Below are positions 3,478 through 17,828 of a DNA stretch of 17,828 nucleotides, one piece after another. The position numbers were made by a program, and so were the translations under genes. A model generated the notes under the pieces. It ran no database searches and had not been told where the DNA came from. It worked only from the letters and a program-made list of their open reading frames with translations. The stretch comes from a virus (lineage: Duplodnaviria; Heunggongvirae; Uroviricota; Caudoviricetes), in the IMG/VR virus record IMGVR_UViG_2563366803_000003, one strand, 5' to 3'. Within the stretch, counting starts at the first letter, position 1. Every line of letters starts with the position of its first letter.

Positions 3478-3529
3478 CTTCCATTAATCCCTGAATTGTT
3501 GGTTAATACGCTTGAGGATGAATGCGAAT

Positions 3530-3556
3530 AATAAAAAAGGAGCCTGTAGCTCCCTG
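3530..3556 (-). terminator. Possible rho-independent terminator (short GC stem ggagc/gctcc followed by T6 on minus strand)
   Basis: Hairpin 3539-3553 with A-tract 3533-3538 on + strand (= T-tract on minus), 20 nt downstream of the 3576 stop. Confidence 0.35.
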
Positions 3557-6050: not shown

Positions 6051-6257
6051 TTAGTGATTCAGGCCATTACCGCGTCCGTCGAAAAAAACTTCCACGAGCA
6101 AATCACGGGTATAAGTGCGCTCGATGCCGCGATGCAGATATAGCCGTCCGCGTAAATTAGCTGATGCAGTCCAGGTACCATCTTTGTGTTTGACCAGCAT
6201 TCCTGGCATGACCGCACCTCGATTAACGGTCTGCGTTCCGTAATGTTGATGAACCAT
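6051..6257 (-). CDS. Small early-left protein (68 aa from ATG at 6257 with AGGAG SD), possibly Kil-like host division inhibitor by position next to gam; in-frame upstream extension to 6461 is Arg-rich
   Basis: Strong SD (AGGAGTTTTT-ATG) at the internal start; first ORF downstream of the predicted pL; function assigned by synteny only. Confidence 0.4.
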
Positions 6258-6529
6258 AAAAACTCCTGCCCGTAAGCTGGGCTGCTGAACATATAGAGAC
6301 TTCTGCGCGTATTCAGGCGGTGGATGGCCGCCGGTTGTCATAACTAAGCCGCCTCGTTGAAGCGACTGAGGTATGAGGTGTTGAGTTGATTTCAGCTGGT
6401 CACACCGACGTTCACGCGTCCGTTTCACCCCTCGCACTCCCCGGAGCCTGCCGAAATTCAAGCTGCGGATCTAAGCGGTCATCGCAACGGTGAATCAGGT
6501 GGTTGCCGTATCGTTGTGTTGTTGCGACA

Positions 6530-6600
6530 TGGTGATAATAGCTATTGCTATTGGTGGTATCAATACTTATTGCTATTGATTGATGTGTTTTGATATTAAC
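6530..6600 (-). promoter_or_regulatory. Predicted pL/oL: minus-strand -35 TTGATA (+ coords 6558-6563) and -10 TATTAT (6535-6540) with 17-bp spacer, overlapped by repeated GCTATTG operator-like motifs
   Basis: Hexamers and spacing read directly; motif TTGCTATTG (6545-6553, 6570-6578) is shared with the cI-cro intergenic region. Confidence 0.4.
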
Positions 6601-6712: not shown

Positions 6713-6745
6713 AAACCCGGCACGGTGGCCGGGACGTTTTATTTC
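6713..6745. terminator. Bidirectional rho-independent terminator (stem cccggc...gccggg, flanked by T-runs on both strands); likely end of the cI operon (tImm-like)
   Basis: aaaacccggcacggtggccgggacgttttatttc immediately after the stop of the 6739-7251 gene. Confidence 0.65.
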
Positions 6746-7251
6746 AAAGAAAAATTATGACTAGCGTATCTTGGAAGAAATTCATATAGTGTTAATGTCT
6801 TAACGCCGTGAGAAGCAGCAGCATCCGGGATCATTATTCTTTTTTTAGGTTTGCCACCGGATGGTTTCTCATGGGTAATAATAGTATATCCATGTGTCAT
6901 CGCATGGGCTATTAAAAAAGCATCTGCTTTTTCATGGCTTGCAAAATCAAACTTTGCCTTTTCGGTAACATCTAATTTAGTTGACCAATTTATTAACTTT
7001 GCATAATTTTCTATTGAACTATGCTCATCTTCGAAGAATGATGATGGTAACTCTTCTTTAATCCATTTACACAATGGATCATCTTTTGCACATAGTTCTT
7101 TTTTTACAGCATTAATGCTATAAATCAGACCATTCATGTGTAAAGCGAGAAGAAAATCCCAAAATATTTTGCAATAATTGAAGTTATATGCAAAGTTTTT
7201 TGCCTCTATGAAGACATTACTATCAATTAAGAATTTTCCATTATGAATCAT
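6739..7251 (-). CDS. DUF4411-type PIN-like putative nuclease (170 aa); candidate effector of a two-gene defense/toxin module
   Basis: Size, N-terminal FLIDSNVFI strand with conserved Asp and later acidic residues fit a PIN-like fold; ATGA start/stop overlap with upstream metallopeptidase gene; AT-rich composition. Confidence 0.6.
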   Translation of the reverse strand: MIHNGKFLIDSNVFIEAKNFAYNFNYCKIFWDFLLALHMNGLIYSINAVKKELCAKDDPLCKWIKEELPSSFFEDEHSSIENYAKLINWSTKLDVTEKAKFDFASHEKADAFLIAHAMTHGYTIITHEKPSGGKPKKRIMIPDAAASHGVKTLTLYEFLPRYASHNFSLK

Positions 7252-8387
7252 AGAGATTCTCGTTTTTTATAAAATTCAACAACTGTATCTGCTTTTACAT
7301 TTAGCAGTACGCCTGCTTCCCTTAATGGTAATTGTTGAGACATTGCTTTGGAAATTATTATATTCGTAAGTTTTGGACTGTTACGAACAGGTAATGTGTT
7401 AAAGAAAGAACCACCATTAGATTCTTTTTTGGGCTTATTGTAAGCTTGATCTTTAATTATCTCCAAAGTGTTTCTTTCTATCAAATCTAATTGTAACGCT
7501 TTGATTGCACAAGCGAAATCACTAACCTTAAATAACTTAGAAACCTCTTTTACTCGATAATAATTATTATCGCTGGATGCATTAAGCCAGAAAGATTTGA
7601 AGAGATTATCAGGCATTAAGATTTCAGCAGCAACTTTATTACAAAAAGATTCTATGTTTTTTTCTGTGTCCCACCCAGAGACTCCATCGACTCCAAGCCA
7701 AAGATGAGCCACCTCATGAAATAATGTAAATACCTGCGCAGATAACGCGTCCGAGCTATTTACAAAAATGATCGGAGCAACGCTATCAGATATACAGAAA
7801 CCACGAAACTCTCGCGTGTCAAGTTTTCTTTTATTATTATTACCCACAACACCATTCTTGAAAACTAATACGCCAGTGTCTTCTATTAGTTTTGCCACTT
7901 TAGAAAAATAGCTCTCAAAAGTGACATTTTTTATCTCTTTTTGTATATCAAAATGTATTGTGTTTGCTATGTCTGTAGCAACAACCTTATAATTTAATTT
8001 TCTATTAAATTTAAATTTACCAATAAAATCGAGTGGATCATCATTACCATTTTCTCTTAAATAGTCTTTGTACCACTCAAGTTTATATTCTATATCATAG
8101 TAAACATCAAAAAAATCTTTTCCTAACTCACGGCTATTTATAGCTTGCCTTAAGTCAGGGATCTTGGGTTTGGCTGGAGTTGGTGGCGTTTCAAGAAATA
8201 AAAAACCGAAAGGGATTCCTCCAATTTTTGCCAGTTTTTCTGCTGCGGATTTACTTACCACTCCGTTAAGAAATTTATTAATCTTTTTGGGCATGACTTG
8301 GTCAGCAAGAGTTTCGATAGAAACTCCTTGAGAATTTGCTATCCAATCAATCATCTTCCTAGACAATTGAAATTCAACCGCTGCCAT
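7248..8387 (-). CDS. HTH + ImmA/IrrE-family (COG2856/M78-like) zinc metallopeptidase, 379 aa
   Basis: HExxH motif in FTLFHEVAHLWLG; N-terminal HTH-like segment (IDWIANSQGVSIETLADQV); AGGTGA SD upstream of ATG at 8387; translationally coupled to DUF4411 gene. Confidence 0.7.
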   Translation of the reverse strand: MAAVEFQLSRKMIDWIANSQGVSIETLADQVMPKKINKFLNGVVSKSAAEKLAKIGGIPFGFLFLETPPTPAKPKIPDLRQAINSRELGKDFFDVYYDIEYKLEWYKDYLRENGNDDPLDFIGKFKFNRKLNYKVVATDIANTIHFDIQKEIKNVTFESYFSKVAKLIEDTGVLVFKNGVVGNNNKRKLDTREFRGFCISDSVAPIIFVNSSDALSAQVFTLFHEVAHLWLGVDGVSGWDTEKNIESFCNKVAAEILMPDNLFKSFWLNASSDNNYYRVKEVSKLFKVSDFACAIKALQLDLIERNTLEIIKDQAYNKPKKESNGGSFFNTLPVRNSPKLTNIIISKAMSQQLPLREAGVLLNVKADTVVEFYKKRESL

Positions 8388-8516: not shown

Positions 8517-9209
8517 CTACCCATGCTTTCTATATGTCTGCGGCATGCTCCCGATGACTTTCCCGAAGATGAACACGCGGTTCATCTCGTCTTTCTCGAT
8601 CGGGTCCCACGGTGAGTAGCTCTTGTTATCAGAGATAACCAGCAGCTTATCCTTCATCATTTGCAGGCGCTTTACATGGGCGGTGTCGTCATACAGAAAC
8701 GCATAGATACCATCACCGTCGAAAGATTTAACAGTGATATCAACGAACAGAAGATCACCTGGTTCGATCGTTCCTGACATGCTGTCACCGCGTACGTTAA
8801 TGATGCGGATATTTTCTGCCTTCCTGCCATCGAACATGTGACGAGCATCGTCAAACGAGTACTCAACCGAGCGTAGAACTTCTACAAACTCACGGTTGAT
8901 GACTCCCGGCCCGGCACTCACTTCTATATCAAGAACGTCAATCTTGAAGTATTTGGGATGGTTGGCAGTAGGCTTCCCTAATTGTTGACCGTCATTTCTC
9001 ATCGGGCCTATGCCTGATGAGAGCCACTCTGTTCGAACACCCAATGCATTAGCTATTTCAACAATTTTTGTTGAGCCGCGCGCGTTGCCGCTTGTCAGTC
9101 TCCAGATTGTGGGTTGAGCTACCCCAGACGCCTTTGCAAGAGCGCCTTGAGACATTCCAGATTGTTCCATCGCTAGGTTTAAGCGATCAGCAAGAGTTTC
9201 TTTTTTCAT
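8517..9209 (-). CDS. cI: cI-type prophage repressor (N-terminal XRE HTH + C-terminal S24/LexA-like autopeptidase), about 230 aa, leaderless
   Basis: HTH segment LADRLNLAMEQSGMSQGALAKASGVAQPTIWRL; S24 peptidase signature around GDSMSGTIEPGDLLFVD with downstream Lys (HVKRL); ATG at 9209 lies 7 nt after a -10 hexamer. Confidence 0.85.
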   Translation of the reverse strand: MKKETLADRLNLAMEQSGMSQGALAKASGVAQPTIWRLTSGNARGSTKIVEIANALGVRTEWLSSGIGPMRNDGQQLGKPTANHPKYFKIDVLDIEVSAGPGVINREFVEVLRSVEYSFDDARHMFDGRKAENIRIINVRGDSMSGTIEPGDLLFVDITVKSFDGDGIYAFLYDDTAHVKRLQMMKDKLLVISDNKSYSPWDPIEKDEMNRVFIFGKVIGSMPQTYRKHG

Positions 9210-9319
9210 AAGTTTTAATTTATACGCTTGCGTATTGATGGTCAAAACACGTTTTGCTATTGTTATGATTAATACGCATTGCTATTATTTATTCATTGCA
9301 ATACCAATAGGAATTGATA
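9210..9319. promoter_or_regulatory. Divergent immunity control region. Predicted pRM on minus strand (-35 TTGACC at + 9240-9245, -10 TAAATT at 9217-9222, leaderless cI) and pR on plus strand (-35 TTGTTA 9260-9265, -10 TATTAT 9283-9288); operator-like repeats TTGCTATT and palindromes
   Basis: Hexamers and 17-bp spacings read directly; motif shared with 6540-6580. Confidence 0.5.
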
Positions 9320-11133: not shown

Positions 11134-11831
11134 AAAACATCGCCGCACAGATGGTTAACTTTGACCGTGAGCAGATGCGTCGGATCGCCAACAACATGCC
11201 GGAACAGTACGACGAAAAGCCGCAGGTACAGCAGGTAGCGCAGATCATCAACGGTGTGTTCAGCCAGTTACTGGCAACTTTCCCGGCGAGCCTGGCTAAC
11301 CGTGACCAGAATGAACTGAACGAAATCCGCCGCCAGTGGGTTCTGGCTTTCCGGGAAAACGGGATCACCACAATGGAACAGGTTAACGCTGGAATGCGCG
11401 TAGCCCGTCGGCAGAATCGACCATTCCTGCCATCACCCGGGCAGTTTGTCGCCTGGTGCCGGGAAGAAGCATCTGTTAACGCCGGGCTGCCAAACGTCAG
11501 CGAGCTGGTTGATATGGTTTACGAGTATTGCCGGAAGCGTGGCCTGTATCCGGATGCAGAGTCTTATCCGTGGAAATCGAACGCGCATTACTGGTTGGTT
11601 ACCAACTTGTACCAGAACATGCGGGCCAATGCGCTGACTGACGCGGAATTACGGCGCAAGGCTGCCGATGAACTGACCTGTATGACAGCGCGAATTAACC
11701 GTGGTGAGACGATACCTGAACCAGTAAAACAACTTCCTGTTATGGGCGGTAGACCTCTAAATCGTGCACAGGCTCTGGCGAAGATCGCAGAAATTAAAGC
11801 TAAGTTCGGACTGAAAGGAGCAATTGTATGA
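11130..11831 (+). CDS. P: Lambda P-type replication protein (DnaB helicase loader), 233 aa
   Basis: Translation MKNIAAQMVNFDREQMRRIANNMPEQYDEKPQVQQVAQIINGVFSQLLATFPASLANRDQNELNEIRRQW... matches lambda P; ATGA overlap with O. Confidence 0.95.
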   Translation: MKNIAAQMVNFDREQMRRIANNMPEQYDEKPQVQQVAQIINGVFSQLLATFPASLANRDQNELNEIRRQWVLAFRENGITTMEQVNAGMRVARRQNRPFLPSPGQFVAWCREEASVNAGLPNVSELVDMVYEYCRKRGLYPDAESYPWKSNAHYWLVTNLYQNMRANALTDAELRRKAADELTCMTARINRGETIPEPVKQLPVMGGRPLNRAQALAKIAEIKAKFGLKGAIV

Positions 11832-12130
11832 CGGGCAAAGAGGCAATTATTCATTACCTGGGGACGCATAAGAGCTTCTGTGCACAGGACGTTGCCGCGG
11901 TAACAGGCGCAACCGTAACCAGCATAAATCAGGCTGCGGCTAAAATGGCGCGGGCAGGAATCCTGGTCGTTGATGGTAAGGTCTGGCGAACGGTGTATTA
12001 CCGGTTCGCTACCAGAGAAGAACGGGAAGGAAAGGTGAGCACGAATCTGATTTTTAAGGAGTGTCGCCAGAGTGCCGCGATGAAACGGGTATTGAGGGTA
12101 TATAAAAGAACATCAATGGGAACACAATGA
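11828..12130 (+). CDS. ren: Ren (Rex exclusion-escape protein), 100 aa
   Basis: Translation MTGKEAIIHYLGTH.SFCA.DVAA.TGATVTSINQAAAKMARAG... matches lambda Ren; ATGA overlap with P. Confidence 0.9.
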   Translation: MTGKEAIIHYLGTHKSFCAQDVAAVTGATVTSINQAAAKMARAGILVVDGKVWRTVYYRFATREEREGKVSTNLIFKECRQSAAMKRVLRVYKRTSMGTQ

Positions 12131-12197
12131 TGAAACAGGTGAGTTGAGTTCAAACTGTAGTACAATTCTCTCCAGTTTGAACAGGAAAGAATATGCT

Positions 12198-12530
12198 ATG
12201 AACCCTTATATTTATCTTGGTGGTGCAATACTTGCAGAGGTCATTGGTACAACCTTAATGAAGTTTTCAGAAGGTTTTACACGGTTATGGCCATCTGTTG
12301 GTACAATTATTTGTTATTGTGCATCATTCTGGTTATTAGCTCAGACGCTGGCTTATATTCCTACAGGGATTGCTTATGCTATCTGGTCAGGAGTCGGTAT
12401 TGTCCTGATTAGTTTACTGTCATGGGGATTTTTCGGCCAACGGCTGGACCTGCCAGCCATTATAGGCATGATGTTGATTTGTGCCGGTGTGTTGGTTATT
12501 AATTTATTGTCACGAAGCACACCACATTAA
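12198..12530 (+). CDS. emrE: EmrE small multidrug-resistance efflux transporter, 110 aa (prophage moron)
   Basis: Translation MNPYIYLGGAILAEVIGTTLMKFSEGFTRLWPSVGTIICYCASFWLLAQTLAYIPTGIAYAIWSGVGIVLISLLSWGFFGQRLDLPAIIGMMLICAGVL... matches EmrE; AGGAAAG SD. Confidence 0.95.
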   Translation: MNPYIYLGGAILAEVIGTTLMKFSEGFTRLWPSVGTIICYCASFWLLAQTLAYIPTGIAYAIWSGVGIVLISLLSWGFFGQRLDLPAIIGMMLICAGVLVINLLSRSTPH

Positions 12531-12550
12531 AATAATTTGTTTCTAAACGA

Positions 12551-12590
12551 CTAAAATATGGAGGCTCTTATATTTATATGAGCCTCGTTT
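12551..12590 (+). terminator. Rho-independent terminator downstream of emrE (stem gaggctc...gagcctc followed by T-rich tract)
   Basis: Hairpin 12551-12576, T-run 12577-12590. Confidence 0.7.
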
Positions 12591-12784
12591 TATGCTTTTT
12601 GTTAATGTCTTTATTTTTTATGTATTCTTTTGTGCTTTCAAGATTATGGCGTAAGAAAATTGCAATACGATTATTGTTGTATATTCAAGATAATGTGACC
12701 TTAATTGTCTTTTTAAATAAAAATTAAACAAAAATTATATCCCACCACTAAGGTTTATAAAAGCATACGTTAGCAGGTGTCACC

Positions 12785-13624
12785 ATGAAAAAAGCCATAG
12801 CATATATGCGATTTTCATCACCAGGTCAGATGTCTGGTGACTCATTAAACCGACAGAGAAGACTTATTGCTGAATGGTTAAAGGTAAATAGTGATTATTA
12901 TCTTGATACCATAACATATGAAGATTTAGGATTAAGTGCATTCAAAGGAAAGCATGCACAATCAGGAGCTTTTTCGGAATTTTTAGATGCTATAGAGCAT
13001 GGTTATATATTGCCAGGAACTACATTGTTAGTTGAAAGTCTGGACAGACTTTCAAGAGAAAAAGTCGGTGAAGCGATTGAACGTCTGAAATTGATTTTGA
13101 ATCACGGTATTGATGTTATAACTCTTTGCGACAATACAGTCTATAATATTGACTCTTTGAATGAGCCATATTCATTAATAAAAGCCATACTTATAGCACA
13201 AAGGGCAAATGAAGAAAGCGAGATAAAGTCAAGTCGGGTTAAATTATCATGGAAGAAAAAACGGCAGGATGCAATGGAATCAGGTACGATTATGACGGCG
13301 TCTTGTCCGAGATGGCTCTCCTTAGATGACAAAAGAACGGCTTTTGTTCCAGACCCCGACAGGGTGAAAACTATTGAGCTAATTTTTAAACTCAGGATGG
13401 AAAGGCGCTCATTGAATGCAATAGCCAAGTATTTAAATGATCATGCTGTAAAGAATTTCTCAGGAAAAGAAAGTGCATGGGGACCTTCTGTAATTGAAAA
13501 ATTATTAGCGAATAAAGCTCTGATAGGTATATGCGTACCTTCATATCGTGCAAGAGGGAAAGGGATAAGTGAAATCGCTGGCTATTATCCCAGAGTTATA
13601 TCAGATGATTTGTTTTACGCTGTA
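12785..13624 (+). pseudogene. ybcK: ybcK-like serine recombinase, truncated after about 280 codons by IS1
   Basis: N-terminal resolvase-type catalytic domain (AIAYMRFSSPGQMSGDSLNRQRR... with catalytic Ser), reading frame runs into IS1 left terminus at 13625. Confidence 0.8.
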
Positions 13625-13639
13625 GGTAATGACTCCAAC

Positions 13640-14143
13640 TTATTGATAGTGTTTTATGTTCAGATAATGCCCGATGACTTTGTCATGCAGCTCCACCGAT
13701 TTTGAAAACGACAGCGACTTCCGTCCCAGCCGTGCCAGGTGCTGCCTCAGATTCAGGTTATGCCGCTCAATTCGCTGCGTATATCGCTTGCTGATTACGT
13801 GCAGCTTTCCCTTCAGGCGGGATTCATACAGCGGCCAGCCATCCGTCATCCATATCACCACGTCAAAGGGTGACAGCAGGCTCATAAGACGCCCCAGCGT
13901 CGCCATAGTGCGTTCACCGAATACGTGCGCAACAACCGTCTTCCGGAGACTGTCATACGCGTAAAACAGCCAGCGCTGGCGCGATTTAGCCCCGACATAG
14001 CCCCACTGTTCGTCCATTTCCGCGCAGACGATGACGTCACTGCCCGGCTGTATGCGCGAGGTTACCGACTGCGGCCTGAGTTTTTTAAGTGACGTAAAAT
14101 CGTGTTGAGGCCAACGCCCATAATGCGGGCTGTTGCCCGGCAT
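13640..14143 (-). CDS. insB: IS1 InsB (the longer 194-aa ORF in the track is the out-of-frame upstream extension used for InsAB' frameshifting)
   Basis: Same frame and sequence as copy A InsB, with one amino-acid difference (H vs R). Confidence 0.93.
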
Positions 14144-14337
14144 CCAACGCCATTCATGGCCATATCTATGATTTTCTGGTGCGTACCGGGTTGAGAAGCG
14201 GTGTAAGTGAACTGCAGTTGCCATGTTTTACGGCAGTGAGAGCAGAGATAGCGCTGATGTCCGGCGGTGCTTTTGCCGTTACGCACCACCCCGTCAGTAG
14301 CTGAACAGGAGGGACAGCTGATAGAAACAGAAGCCAC
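14062..14337 (-). CDS. insA: IS1 InsA
   Basis: Identical protein to copy A InsA. Confidence 0.95.
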
Positions 14338-14392
14338 TGGAGCACCTCAAAAACACCATCATACACTAAATCAGTAAGTTGGCAGCATCACC

Positions 14393-14512
14393 CTCACTAA
14401 AGCAGGTTTCTGGCTGGATGATGCTCAGGTCGTTGATTACCGCGTTGTGAAGATGCCTGTTACCAAAGGTGGGAGGCTGGAACTGACCATCACCGAAATG
14501 GGGAATGAATGA
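14393..14512 (+). pseudogene. rusA: 3' fragment (last 39 codons) of rusA Holliday-junction resolvase, fused directly to the IS1 terminus
   Basis: Translation [39 protein letters not shown] equals the RusA C-terminus as recalled; no start codon or N-terminal part. Confidence 0.8.
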
Positions 14513-14649
14513 TGTTTGAGTTTAATATAGCAGAACTTCTTCGCCACCGCTGGGGGCGTCTGCGCTTATATCGTTTCCCCGGTTCTGTTTTGACCGATTA
14601 CCGAATACTGAAGAATTACGCCAAAACCCTGACAGGAGCAGGAGTATGA
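14509..14649 (+). CDS. ylcG: YlcG small protein (46 aa), start overlaps rusA stop (ATGA)
   Basis: Translation [46 protein letters not shown] matches DLP12 YlcG as recalled. Confidence 0.7.
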
Positions 14650-14734
14650 AGTCAGAGATAACAATCAACTAATACTGTTTTATTGATTTTTGCTTGTAAT
14701 TGGCGTTCTGGTCTGATTTTTGTGGAGTAAGTTG

Positions 14735-15118
14735 ATGCGTGATATTCAGATGGTTCTTGAGCGTTGGGGAGCGTGGGCGGCTAATAATCATGAAGATGTG
14801 ACCTGGTCGTCCATTGCCGCCGGTTTTAAGGGATTAATTCCTTCAAAAGTAAAATCTCGCCCGCAATGTTGTGACGATGACGCGATGATCATTTGCGGGT
14901 GCATGGCCCGTCTGAAAAAGAACAACAGCGATTTGCACGATTTATTAGTAGATTATTATGTAGTCGGTATGACATTCATGTCACTGGCAGGTAAGCATTG
15001 CTGCTCTGATGGTTATATCGGGAAAAGGTTACAAAAGGCTGAGGGCATAATTGAAGGGATGTTAATGGCATTAGATATCCGGTTAGAGATGGATATCGTT
15101 GTTAATAACTCTAATTAA
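14735..15118 (+). CDS. quuD: Late-gene antiterminator Q (QuuD-like), 127 aa
   Basis: Translation [24 protein letters not shown]...[16 protein letters not shown]... with Cys-rich zinc-binding motif; GGAG SD 7 nt upstream. Confidence 0.85.
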
Positions 15119-15143
15119 TACGCCAATTATTTACTAAAAGTTA

Positions 15144-15298
15144 TTAAAAATGGGGCGTTGAAACGCCCCCAAAAATAAAGGGTAATATATAACAGAAGGT
15201 TTGTATAGTTAGAAGCAAGGTTGTGCTTCTAAAGGAAGTGGCTTGAGGGAGCCACTTATATGTTGGGGAGGCAAAGCCTCCCACAACATATCTTTTAG
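15144..15298. promoter_or_regulatory. Q-downstream region with three hairpins (15151-15170, 15238-15256, 15257-15290). Likely contains pR'/qut and a tR'-like terminator on + strand (15257-15298) and a convergent terminator for the porin gene on minus strand (15144-15170)
   Basis: Stem-loops read directly; the 15151-15170 hairpin is followed by a T-run on the minus strand, the 15257-15290 hairpin by CTTTT on the plus strand. Confidence 0.4.
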
Positions 15299-15306
15299 TA
15301 ATCAAA

Positions 15307-16389
15307 TTAGAACTGGTAAACCATACCTACAGCAACGATATCATCGGTAGCAACGCCAGATGCTTTCGTGAAATCGCTCTTATCAATCAGGTTGATTTTG
15401 TAGTCAACAAAAGTGGACATATTTTTGTTGAAGTAATAGGTTGCACCTACATCAACATATTCAACCAGGTCCTGATCACCCCAAACACCCAAGTCTTTTC
15501 CTTTAGAATGCAGGTAAGCAACGGATGGACGCAGGCCGAAGTCGAACTGATATTGTGCAACAGCTTCGAAGTTTTGTGCTTTGTTGGCAATATGGTTATT
15601 ACCAAAAACAGTCATGTTCTGGGTTTCAGAATAGGTGGTGGCCAGATAGATGTTGTTCGCATCATATTTCAGACCAGCTGCCCATACTTCAGCATTTTGA
15701 CCAGAAGCATTCAGACCGTTGTTACCGTAGATAACCTGATTATTAGTGCGATCAGATTTAGCATAGGTTGCACCTACACCGAATCCTTCATACTCATAAG
15801 TAGTGGAGAAACCGAAACCATCACCATTAGCTTCAGTTACGTCAGTGCGGTCATTTTTACCCTGATACTGAGCAGCAAAGTTCAGACCATCAACCAGACC
15901 AAAGAAGTCGTTGTTACGATAAGTTGCAACACCAGTGGTGCGACCAGTCATGAACACATCTGTTTGAGTCCAAGTGTCACCACCGAATTCTGGCAGGACG
16001 TCAGTCCACGCACCGATGTCGTATGCTACACCGTAGTTACGGCCGTAATCGATGGAGCCGTAGTCACCGAATTTCAGGCCAGCGAAGGCAAGACGGGTTT
16101 TATCTTTGGAGGAACCTTGAGATTCAGCGCGGTTGCCTTTGAATTCATATTCCCACTGACCGAAACCAGTCAGTTGATCGTTGATTTGGGTTTCACCTTT
16201 GAAGCCAAGACGGGCATAAGTAGTATCACCATCATCTGCATCATTAGAGGAGAAGTAGTGCTTAGCATTAACTTTCCCGTACAGATCCAGCTTGTTACTG
16301 TCTTTATTATAAATTTCAGCTGCCTGAGCAGACATCGCCATCAGTACTGATGCAGCTACAGCAGAAATTGCCACTGTTAATTTTTTCAT
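15307..16389 (-). CDS. nmpC: Outer-membrane general porin of the NmpC/OmpD/OmpC family, intact (360 aa with signal peptide)
   Basis: Signal peptide [23 protein letters not shown], beta-barrel porin sequence ending ...VGMVYQF; opposite orientation to the phage late genes (moron). Confidence 0.9.
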
Positions 16390-16978
16390 CGTGAGCCCTT
16401 TTTTTTGAACTATTATTAAAAAATGATGTCACTGCGCGATAAATATTCATCTAATCAATGTGATTATTTCAAGATGTAAGTTTTAGTTTCTCATTTAATT
16501 TGTGAAGTAGATCTCTATTTTTATCTGAACTTTTTCTATCGAAACCTATTTATGGCTCTTATTTGAACAAAAATAAACCTATTAGCTAATTTATATTAAT
16601 GGCTGTTATTTATGGGGGGGTCTATAATTCGATGGTTTAATTTAAATTAACTAAAAATAACGCCGGAAATTATTTATTGGTTATTTGTTGAGGTTTTCTT
16701 ATGTATTTGTGGTGGTGTTTTGAACACTCGGTAGCATTCTCATAAATATCATTCAGTGGTTTACGTACGTAAAAAATTGGTTATGCTGTTAAGAGTGGTT
16801 ACTTCGTCACACAGCTTAAACCCGCCGTCGAGCTGGTTTTTCCATTTTTTGAGTCTCGATATTAGCTGATAACTCAATACCTGAGTTATTCACTGACTCC
16901 GAGTCTGTTACGTTTCTGCTTTTTTGCGATACGTTGTATTCCCTCAATTTACACCCGCTTTGTCTGCGAGGTGGGGTT

Positions 16979-17194
16979 ATGAAATCCATGGATAAGTTAA
17001 CAACGGGTGTCGCCTATGGCACCTCAGCAGGTAGTGCCGGTTACTGGTTTTTACAGCTGCTCGATAAAGTCACGCCCTCACAGTGGGCAGCAATAGGTGT
17101 GCTGGGTAGCCTGGTATTTGGCCTGCTGACGTACCTGACAAACCTTTATTTCAAGATTAAAGAAGATAAGCGCAAGGCTGCGAGAGGTGAATAA
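16979..17194 (+). CDS. essD: Class II holin / pinholin of the S21 family (71 aa) with dual-start motif MKSMDK
   Basis: Translation [71 protein letters not shown]; two TM segments; stop overlaps endolysin start (TAATG). Confidence 0.85.
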
Positions 17195-17599
17195 TGCCTC
17201 CATCATTACGAAAAGCCGTTGCTGCTGCTATTGGTGGCGGAGCAATTGCTATAGCATCAGTGTTAATCACTGGCCCAAGTGGTAACGATGGTCTGGAAGG
17301 TGTCAGCTACATACCATACAAAGATATTGTTGGTGTATGGACCGTATGTCACGGGCATACAGGAAAAGACATCATGCTCGGTAAAACGTATACCAAAGCA
17401 GAATGCAAAGCACTCTTGAATAAAGACCTTGCCACTGTCGCCAGACAAATTAACCCATACATCGAAGTCGATATACCGGAAACAACGCGCGGCGCTCTTT
17501 ACTCATTCGTTTACAACGTGGGTGCTGGCAATTTCAGAACATCGACGCTTCTTCGCAAAATAAACCAGGGCGATATCAAAGGCGCATGTGATCAGTTAC
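17194..17599 (+). pseudogene. rrrD: SAR-endolysin (RrrD/R21-like lysozyme) truncated near codon 135 by IS2 insertion
   Basis: N-terminal signal-anchor-release segment [20 protein letters not shown]; lysozyme core; frame continues into the IS2 terminus giving a chimeric tail [16 protein letters not shown]. Confidence 0.8.
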
Positions 17600-17828
17600 T
17601 AGACTGGCCCCCTGAATCTCCAGACAACCAATATCACTTATTTAAGTGATAGTCTTAATACTAGTTTTTAGACTAGTCATTGGAGAACAGATGATTGATG
17701 TCTTAGGGCCGGAGAAACGCAGACGGCGTACCACACAGGAAAAGATCGCAATTGTTCAGCAGAGCTTTGAACCGGGGATGACGGTCTCCCTCGTTGCCCG
17801 GCAACATGGTGTAGCAGCCAGCCAGTTA
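17600..17828 (+). mobile_element. IS2 (IS3 family), terminal part only; continues beyond window
   Basis: Terminus tagactggccccctgaatctccagacaaccaatatcacttaa and downstream orfA (insC) start match IS2 as recalled. Confidence 0.85.
17691..17828 (+). CDS. insC: IS2 OrfA (InsC) transposase N-terminal part, partial at window end
   Basis: Translation [46 protein letters not shown]. Confidence 0.85.

Follow-up and report, generated by a model that had tools for sequence, protein, structure and literature searches.

Phage HK022 suppresses transcription termination through put, a cis-acting RNA that works without a protein, via the zinc-binding domain of the RNA polymerase β′ subunit. King and colleagues are said to have described HK022 putL and putR and the put-like RNAs of HK639, HK75 and others in 1996 and 2011. 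To our knowledge, put is the one sequence family known for protein-independent antitermination by nascent RNA in lambdoid phages. The structure of put RNA on RNA polymerase was solved in 2022 (Hwang et al. 2022, PMC9378689).

We analysed the early-left leader of a 17,828-nt stretch of viral DNA (IMG/VR record IMGVR_UViG_2563366803_000003), hereafter the window, which is a lambdoid prophage of DLP12 type beside a tRNA gene (1479–1552). The leader carries a 98-nt element, X (6386..6483, minus strand), which is a candidate cis-acting antitermination RNA. Like put, X lies just downstream of pL and consists of two adjacent irregular stem-loops, in the size range of ~75–100 nt. The initial annotation had found early antitermination in this prophage unclear and had noticed an arginine-rich motif in the region; that motif falls inside the RNA element occupying the put/nutL slot.

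Genomic context of the early-left region

On the minus strand, the order was the cI-like repressor gene (8517–9245), the ImmA/IrrE-type peptidase gene (7248–8387), the DUF4411 gene (6739–7251), which ends in a terminator at 6733–6716, pL, a 136-codon ORF, gam, RecT-family bet, and exo. The promoter scan placed a sigma-70-like pL (TTGATA-17-TATTAT) at 6535..6563 (minus strand) within operator repeats. These repeats are common to the pR region and form an inverted repeat with 9258–9288, and the pL stretch (6535..6563) differs with the immunity type among the relatives. With pL at 6563–6535, transcription is predicted to start near 6528, resulting in a leader of ~270 nt instead of the ~480 bp previously given between pL and the ORF. 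The 5′ end of the pL transcript (6484..6528, minus strand) is a C/A-rich leader ahead of X1, the subtype of X in the window. In most E. coli genomes similarity begins at 6527, which corresponds to the predicted start site.

Positions 6051–6560 were 100% identical to E. coli SCU-152 and were present at 95–99% identity in 2239 of the 5426 complete E. coli genomes; X1 together with kil occurred in 41% of complete E. coli genomes. The same stretch was found at 95–99% identity in the isolated phages 4A7, Perceval, 1W/3W and the PhiR series. The species-representative genome scan gave one locus only. The E. coli phage kil was also seen with 98–99% identity at the end of the Bacillota bacterium MAG contig JAEWTL010000063.1 (L007), which is probably a mis-binned or contaminant contig.

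The ImmA/IrrE-type peptidase-HTH and DUF4411 gene pair (6739–8387, minus strand) between cI and pL is exchanged in relatives: 4A7 has a hypothetical gene and an ASCH gene in its place, and Perceval a hypothetical gene and a membrane protein gene. This position is a moron slot like that of rexAB, and it possibly holds defence or toxin-antitoxin cargo.

The tRNA gene was taken as argU, with its anticodon loop read by eye. An insertion sequence that encodes a PHROG 720 transposase, taken as IS1-like, was present twice, at 1–~730 and 13640–~14370, with identical first 300 nt. One copy is found past the tRNA gene and the integrase, at the left edge; the other is in the nin-like region, immediately before the Q-like gene (14720–15118, TTG start, possibly truncated). 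The right arm (11828–17649) showed PHROG matches to a Ren-like protein, a QacE/SMR-type transporter, a serine recombinase, a Q-like protein, a holin and an endolysin, and it also contains a 360-aa minus-strand gene of PHROG 410. This order presumably resembles that of the K-12 DLP12 prophage (ren, emrE, ybcK, quuD, nmpC, essD, rrrD). If the resemblance holds, the window would be a fuller relative of the cryptic DLP12.

The kil gene

The lower half of the ORF encodes a 68-aa product plus stop (6051..6257, minus strand) in the KilR/phi80-Kil family. Its Shine-Dalgarno sequence, AGGAG (6263..6267, minus strand), read from the sequence, lies 5 nt before ATG 6257. The product matched PHROG 294 (‘Kil protein for bacterial septation inhibition’) over residues 1–68 with E = 1e-36. 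It also matched the KilR-like family NCBIfam NF008465 with E = 9e-17 (residues 1–68 on 1–70 of 73), at a score under the family cutoff (60.9 vs 92 bits). The proposal of a Kil-sized protein in Kil position, made from the SD-ATG at 6257 and the length of 68 aa, was supported by the family searches, and Met1 aligned with the N-termini of four homologues, the Kil proteins of phi80, HK225, HK639 and KO-TP1. Codon periodicity in kil was strong (permutation p < 5e-5), and variation among the relatives was overwhelmingly at third codon positions. The positions just before the start codon (6258–6289) showed zero polymorphism in 34 unbiased relatives, and the RefSeq annotation is exactly the 207-nt CDS. 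Alignments and codon statistics therefore show kil beginning at ATG 6257 and encoding a 68-aa protein of KilR/phi80-Kil type.

Conter and colleagues are said to have described Rac KilR and phi80 Kil as FtsZ-directed division inhibitors in 1996. The window product aligned end to end with proteins of this type, with 40% identity to phi80 Kil and 84% to HK225 Kil, and its gene likewise sits in the pL operon just upstream of gam. It differs from KilR proper in its score below the NCBIfam cutoff. It is unrelated to lambda Kil (47 aa), and Pfam Lambda_Kil gave no match. From the family annotation, FtsZ inhibition is a putative activity of the 68-aa Kil.

The kil gene is ordinary and already annotated. 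Phage Perceval (OV696612.1, L002, 4258–4677) is annotated with a long 139-aa form of Kil that includes the leader, and 4A7 and RefSeq use the 68-aa form. Where phage records carry the long ‘Kil’ annotation, it should be cut back to the 68-aa form. A terminator-like hairpin, CCGTGATTTGCTCGTGG then AAGTTTTTTT (6092–6108, minus strand), was seen inside the 3′ end of kil, and also in 4A7 and Perceval; it may be due to chance, because the stem is weak.

The upstream extension of the kil reading frame

The ORF runs on the minus strand from TTG 6461 to the stop at 6051–6053, and its frame is shut upstream by an invariant TAG at 6473–6471. The extension encodes the peptide GRLRGVRGVKRTRERRCDQLKS at 6452–6387 (minus strand). 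Inside it, just 3′ of GTG 6428, lies the ARM-like motif KRTRERR, with the codons AAA CGG ACG CGT GAA CGT CGG (6405..6425, minus strand). The ORF at 6051–6461, the SD-ATG and the KRTRERR peptide were all present as the initial annotation had described them. The upstream TTG and GTG starts were also present, but the poor spacing ascribed to them did not apply to GTG 6428, which is preceded by GGAG at 8 nt; its spacing permits initiation.

We estimate that a given frame would stay open over 68 further codons in ~4–10% of cases. Six-frame translation of the window gave one match to the pattern [RK]x[RK]E[RK][RK], against ~0.6 expected by chance. The open extension and the motif are each unremarkable alone, and only the location of the motif is remarkable.

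The longer protein with an N-like arginine-rich motif, which had been offered as a second reading of this ORF, did not withstand comparison with 124 relatives, retrieved partly through a peptide-independent DNA pattern. The extension was interrupted in 22 of them (~18%), with a stop at codon 32 in 18 (CAG to TAG at 6368, 20 codons from GTG 6428) and frameshifts in the other four. The codon-32 stop occurs in five phage isolates, whose hosts were E. coli C, K-12 or ECOR13. The middle of the ORF, codons 29–55, is homologous to non-coding DNA in phi80, HK639 and HK225, where the frame is closed and the sequence GAAGTCT sits in another frame than in the window; the same part forms a covarying hairpin. 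Codon periodicity was absent from codons 32–68 (p = 0.88), and the frame of the motif is closed in X2, the second subtype of X. The extension gave zero Pfam, PHROG or NCBIfam family matches. Among 5.8 billion proteins and in a tblastn search of 50,697 phage records, its homologues were found at the same locus only. These results show that the upstream 68 codons are a non-coding leader and not a gene, and that the 136-codon ORF arises because a real gene and its untranslated leader happen to share one open frame.

Two RNA modules in the pL leader

The ~270-nt leader (~6528 to 6258) consists of two RNA modules, X and a structured 5′-UTR element. The UTR element (6297..6376, minus strand) corresponds to codons 29–55 of the long ORF. 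It is composed, in order, of CATAC, a covarying hairpin with a conserved UUC...GAG top, GTTATGACAACCGGCGGCCATCCACCGCC and GAAGTCT (6297–6303, minus strand). Hairpin P3 (6339–6375, minus strand; codons 30–42) showed seven pairs with compensatory changes across 20 variants. Its folding z was −3.84, and 0 of 200 shuffles were equally stable. Hairpin P4 lies at 6316–6332 (minus strand).

The UTR element is common to phi80, where it follows the N stop and tL1A, HK639 and HK225, and in these phages it is non-coding and lies 3′ of tL1. It was located at ~3001–3137 in L003, ~2480–2600 in L004 and 2501–2620 in L005. In ~75 IMG/VR loci (L092–L211), a strong intrinsic terminator (GCCGCCTAACCAGCGGCTTTT or CCCGCTCCGGCGGGTTTTTT) nearly always lies directly before the element. 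The upstream genes are diverse in these loci, and the element continues to the SD-ATG of varied first genes. Rfam gave no match for the element, and in the window type no intrinsic terminator was found between pL and kil. Judged from these comparisons, the second module is a shared 5′-UTR placed after tL1.

X starts 45 nt past the predicted pL start and comprises two adjacent stem-loops, as put does. SL-I covers 6433–6477 (minus strand; columns 7–51) and SL-II 6394–6432 (minus strand; columns 52–90). In-frame reading of the apical SL-II hairpin gives the KRTRERR motif (6425–6405); in this hairpin ACGGACG and CGUCGGU face each other at 6423–6404. The subtype X2 was found in an nhmmer search of the window 5′ leader against non-window-type loci, in which locus L182 matched with E = 1e-14; a follow-up pattern search gave 14 further X2 loci. 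X2 has the same 98-nt length as X1 and 80–82% identity to it. In X2 the SL-II stem is retained, the loop and the peptide are changed, and TGA and GTG-TAA interrupt the frame. No X2 was detected in complete E. coli genomes or in the phage collection. Two exclusion patterns for a third subtype gave chance matches only.

Between X1 and X2, both sides changed in three pairs: A-U to C-G and G-C to A-U in SL-I, and A-U to G-C in SL-II. Because only two lineages are compared, these three compensatory pairs count as three events. Three more pairs vary through wobble only. Across the alignment, 96.6% of cells were paired, vs ~32% in slid controls, and RNAalifold on structure-free input returned the same stems, with SL-II extended to abut SL-I. 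In 34 relatives chosen blind to the peptide, polymorphic sites made up 11–13% of X vs 42% of the 4-fold sites of kil and gam. X appears from this difference to be under purifying selection. The folding energy of X was not better than that of shuffled sequence (z ~0 to −0.5). A prior description of X was found neither in Rfam nor in the searchable literature, where Rfam also lacks put and King et al. 2011 lay outside the search; X may have been described before.

A motif, CAGCAGCTCTTTGCGAGGGGCTGACGGTAAAC, was observed downstream of both put (HK639) and X2 (L004, 1425–1455; L182, 8530–8500, minus strand; also L225, L227 and L237). It resembles the centre of X (CAGCAGG..GGGGAGTGCGAGGGGTGAAACGG) and could have arisen by partial duplication or represent a block with a common function.

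The beginning of the transcript, +5 to +16, carries CAACAACACAAC (6513–6524, minus strand), a perfect 12-nt complement of the GcvB R1 seed GTTGTGTTGTTG (K-12 gcvB positions 72–83). The complement was present in 120 of the 124 relatives. A 12-nt match was reached by 4 of 2000 shuffles, and it was noticed post hoc. On this complementarity, GcvB could target the pL transcript or be sponged by it.

Search for N, nut and put

Family and homology searches detected no recognisable N gene anywhere in the window, which agrees with the initial annotation in that no other N-like gene was seen. Nut elements, for which a search of the leader had been proposed, did not appear: neither early leader contains a boxA-like sequence, and a second copy of the leader hairpins was absent anywhere in the window, including the rightward operon. 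The idea that the ARM is a 5′ remnant of a deleted N gene was rejected; neither N nor any other protein has this ARM. The phi80 N protein, tried as a marker of nut loci, detected phi80 only and is hence uninformative. Such diversity of N proteins means that a downstream gene in the X2 phages could be a cognate factor.

For put, we built a covariance model from 10 put RNAs (HK022 putL and putR, HK639, UPF_BP1, phiEt88, S9-5, PdC23 and IMG/VR variants) with 16 pairs, 8 of them covarying. On control loci the model recovered put at E = 1e-27 to 1e-29. It gave zero matches in the leader, and its best match in the window (E = 0.49) lay outside the leader. The invariant put blocks GAACGGC, GUCGG, GGCG.G and CAAU were all absent from X. 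A likeness to put had been noted by eye, with GGCAGGCUCCGGGGAGUGCG set against the stem II core, GAAACGGACGCG..CGUCGG against stem I, and ACGGCAAC. We treated it as coincidence, because the order is reversed and the covariance model finds nothing.

Rfam likewise returned nothing for the leader, but this silence is uninformative because put itself is missing from Rfam. An anti-sRNA of AgvB type was also considered and rejected, as AgvB is positioned downstream of pR′ (PMC4104026) and not at pL.

Possible function of the X element

We lean, with reservations, towards the reading that combines a chance-union ORF, an untranslated leader, a kil gene starting at 6257 and X as the early antitermination signal of this phage group. 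The role of X in it is suggested by position and by analogy with put. In the manner of HK022 put, X as a nascent RNA would work in cis, on the RNA polymerase that is transcribing it. Transcription from pL could then pass the downstream terminators, at 3555–3537 in the window and tL1 in the X2 phages. A dedicated phage protein would be unnecessary for this action, because the interval from pL to kil in X1 phages contains only the spurious ORF.

The arrangement of related leaders is consistent with an antitermination signal. The shared pL leader ATCGAAACGAAACATCGACAGCTGAGCGAAGTTAGCCAGCGGCG is followed by boxA/nut as in phi80 (29 loci), by put (19 loci) or by X2 (13 loci), and never by two of them. 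In L182, X2 stands in place of the HK639 put core with identical flanks. The order pL, X1, UTR element and first gene in the window parallels the order pL, put, UTR element and first gene in L101. In all nine X2 loci with enough sequence, a strong intrinsic terminator lies 0.7–1.9 kb after X2, and boxA and put were absent from these nine loci. The genes between X2 and its terminator vary by locus, including the first genes. In the window, an intrinsic terminator of the early-left operon (3527..3555, minus strand; AGGGAGCTACAGGCTCCTT then TTTTTATTATT) lies upstream of the DksA-like gene, xis and int. It is kept in phages Perceval and 4A7, where it parts the exo-region genes from xis/int.

In its fullest form, the proposal would make X a third kind of lambdoid early antitermination signal beside N/nut and put, phage-protein-free, formed by a ~98-nt two-stem-loop with a sequence unrelated to put, and carried in prophages of ~41% of complete E. 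coli genomes. As nascent RNA, it would render the E. coli RNA polymerase resistant to terminators. We put this forward tentatively and regard it as possible but rather doubtful.

The alternative that survives best gives the leader RNA, with X in it, a function different from antitermination, in a lineage that lost tL1 and reads its early-left genes straight from pL. The proposed roles are RNA stability or processing, control of kil translation, Rho attenuation over the C-rich tract (6400–6377), and binding of a host sRNA or protein. We consider this somewhat unlikely. The window lacks a terminator between pL and kil, though relatives have one right before the UTR element, and so kil, gam, bet and exo may need no antitermination. 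The rightward operon has neither a copy of X nor a strong plus-strand terminator before the Q-like gene, and both the unremarkable folding energy of X and the GcvB-seed complement in the leader would fit another role. However, the X2 phages retain tL1 and yet have neither put nor boxA, X alternates with put and nutL at a single precise junction, and X1 phages conserve the intrinsic terminator between the exo-region genes and xis/int. The variation of the downstream genes between X loci counts against a gene-specific translational regulator.

We judge it improbable that the leader acts through a peptide of at least 20 aa (MKRTRERRCDQLKSTQH(L/F)IP...) translated from GTG/ATG 6428, by its arginine-rich sequence or by blocking Rho over the C-rich tract, which in most relatives would continue into Kil as a 125-aa isoform. 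Besides the GGAG at suitable distance, such a peptide is favoured by the replacement of GTG 6428 by ATG in 7 of the 124 relatives, mostly in the early-stop clade, and by the first 20 codons, which are intact in all relatives but three with a 5-nt duplication that shifts the frame after codon 16 of the leader-peptide ORF. Diversity in codons 12–31 was 0.066 at third codon positions vs 0.022 at first and second positions (p = 0.077), a periodicity that is weak and non-significant. Against the peptide, the frame is closed in X2 (TGA, then GTG TAA) and the RNA stems are retained there. In addition, pairing in the conserved structure takes up column 44, a base of the SD, and columns 56–57, two bases of the start codon, and the peptide has zero protein-family matches and no homologues elsewhere.

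Finally, that the 125–136-aa ORF is an N-like antiterminator (ARM fused to Kil), or that X is a nut-like site for a phage N analogue, we regard as very improbable: KRTRERRCDQ resembles lambda TRRRERRAEKQ, the ORF is open in ~82% of relatives, Perceval's annotators called the long form, and N proteins are too diverse for homology detection, but phages with the stop at codon 32 are viable, the ORF middle is a covarying non-coding hairpin, boxA and N-family matches are absent, the rightward operon has no second site, the stretch from pL to kil in X1 phages holds no further ORF, and no gene downstream of X is common to the X2 phages. Its fusion-protein version is already largely refuted.

Comparison with known antitermination systems

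Compared with lambda N/nutL, including that of phi80, X lies in the same early-left leader slot, and an arginine-rich peptide can be read from the X1 sequence. The phi80-type leaders agree with the X loci in the leader sequence upstream and in the tL1/UTR element downstream. In contrast to lambda N/nut, the X loci have no boxA, no N homologue and no rightward site, and the peptide frame is not conserved.

Compared with HK022-type put, X differs in that it shows no sequence or covariance-model similarity and none of the invariant blocks. HK022 has both putL and putR, whereas X was found only leftward, with no second X in the rightward operon. X nevertheless occupies the identical junction behind the same leader, followed by tL1 and the UTR element, and neither put nor X is accompanied by a conserved protein gene. 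If the antitermination reading is true, X would explain N-free early gene expression in a very common E. coli prophage group, to which the Bievrevirus phages and Perceval, from the Crohn's-associated strain LF82, belong. A second, unrelated RNA with the job of put would then be an independent solution, and comparison of the two would show which RNA polymerase contacts are essential.
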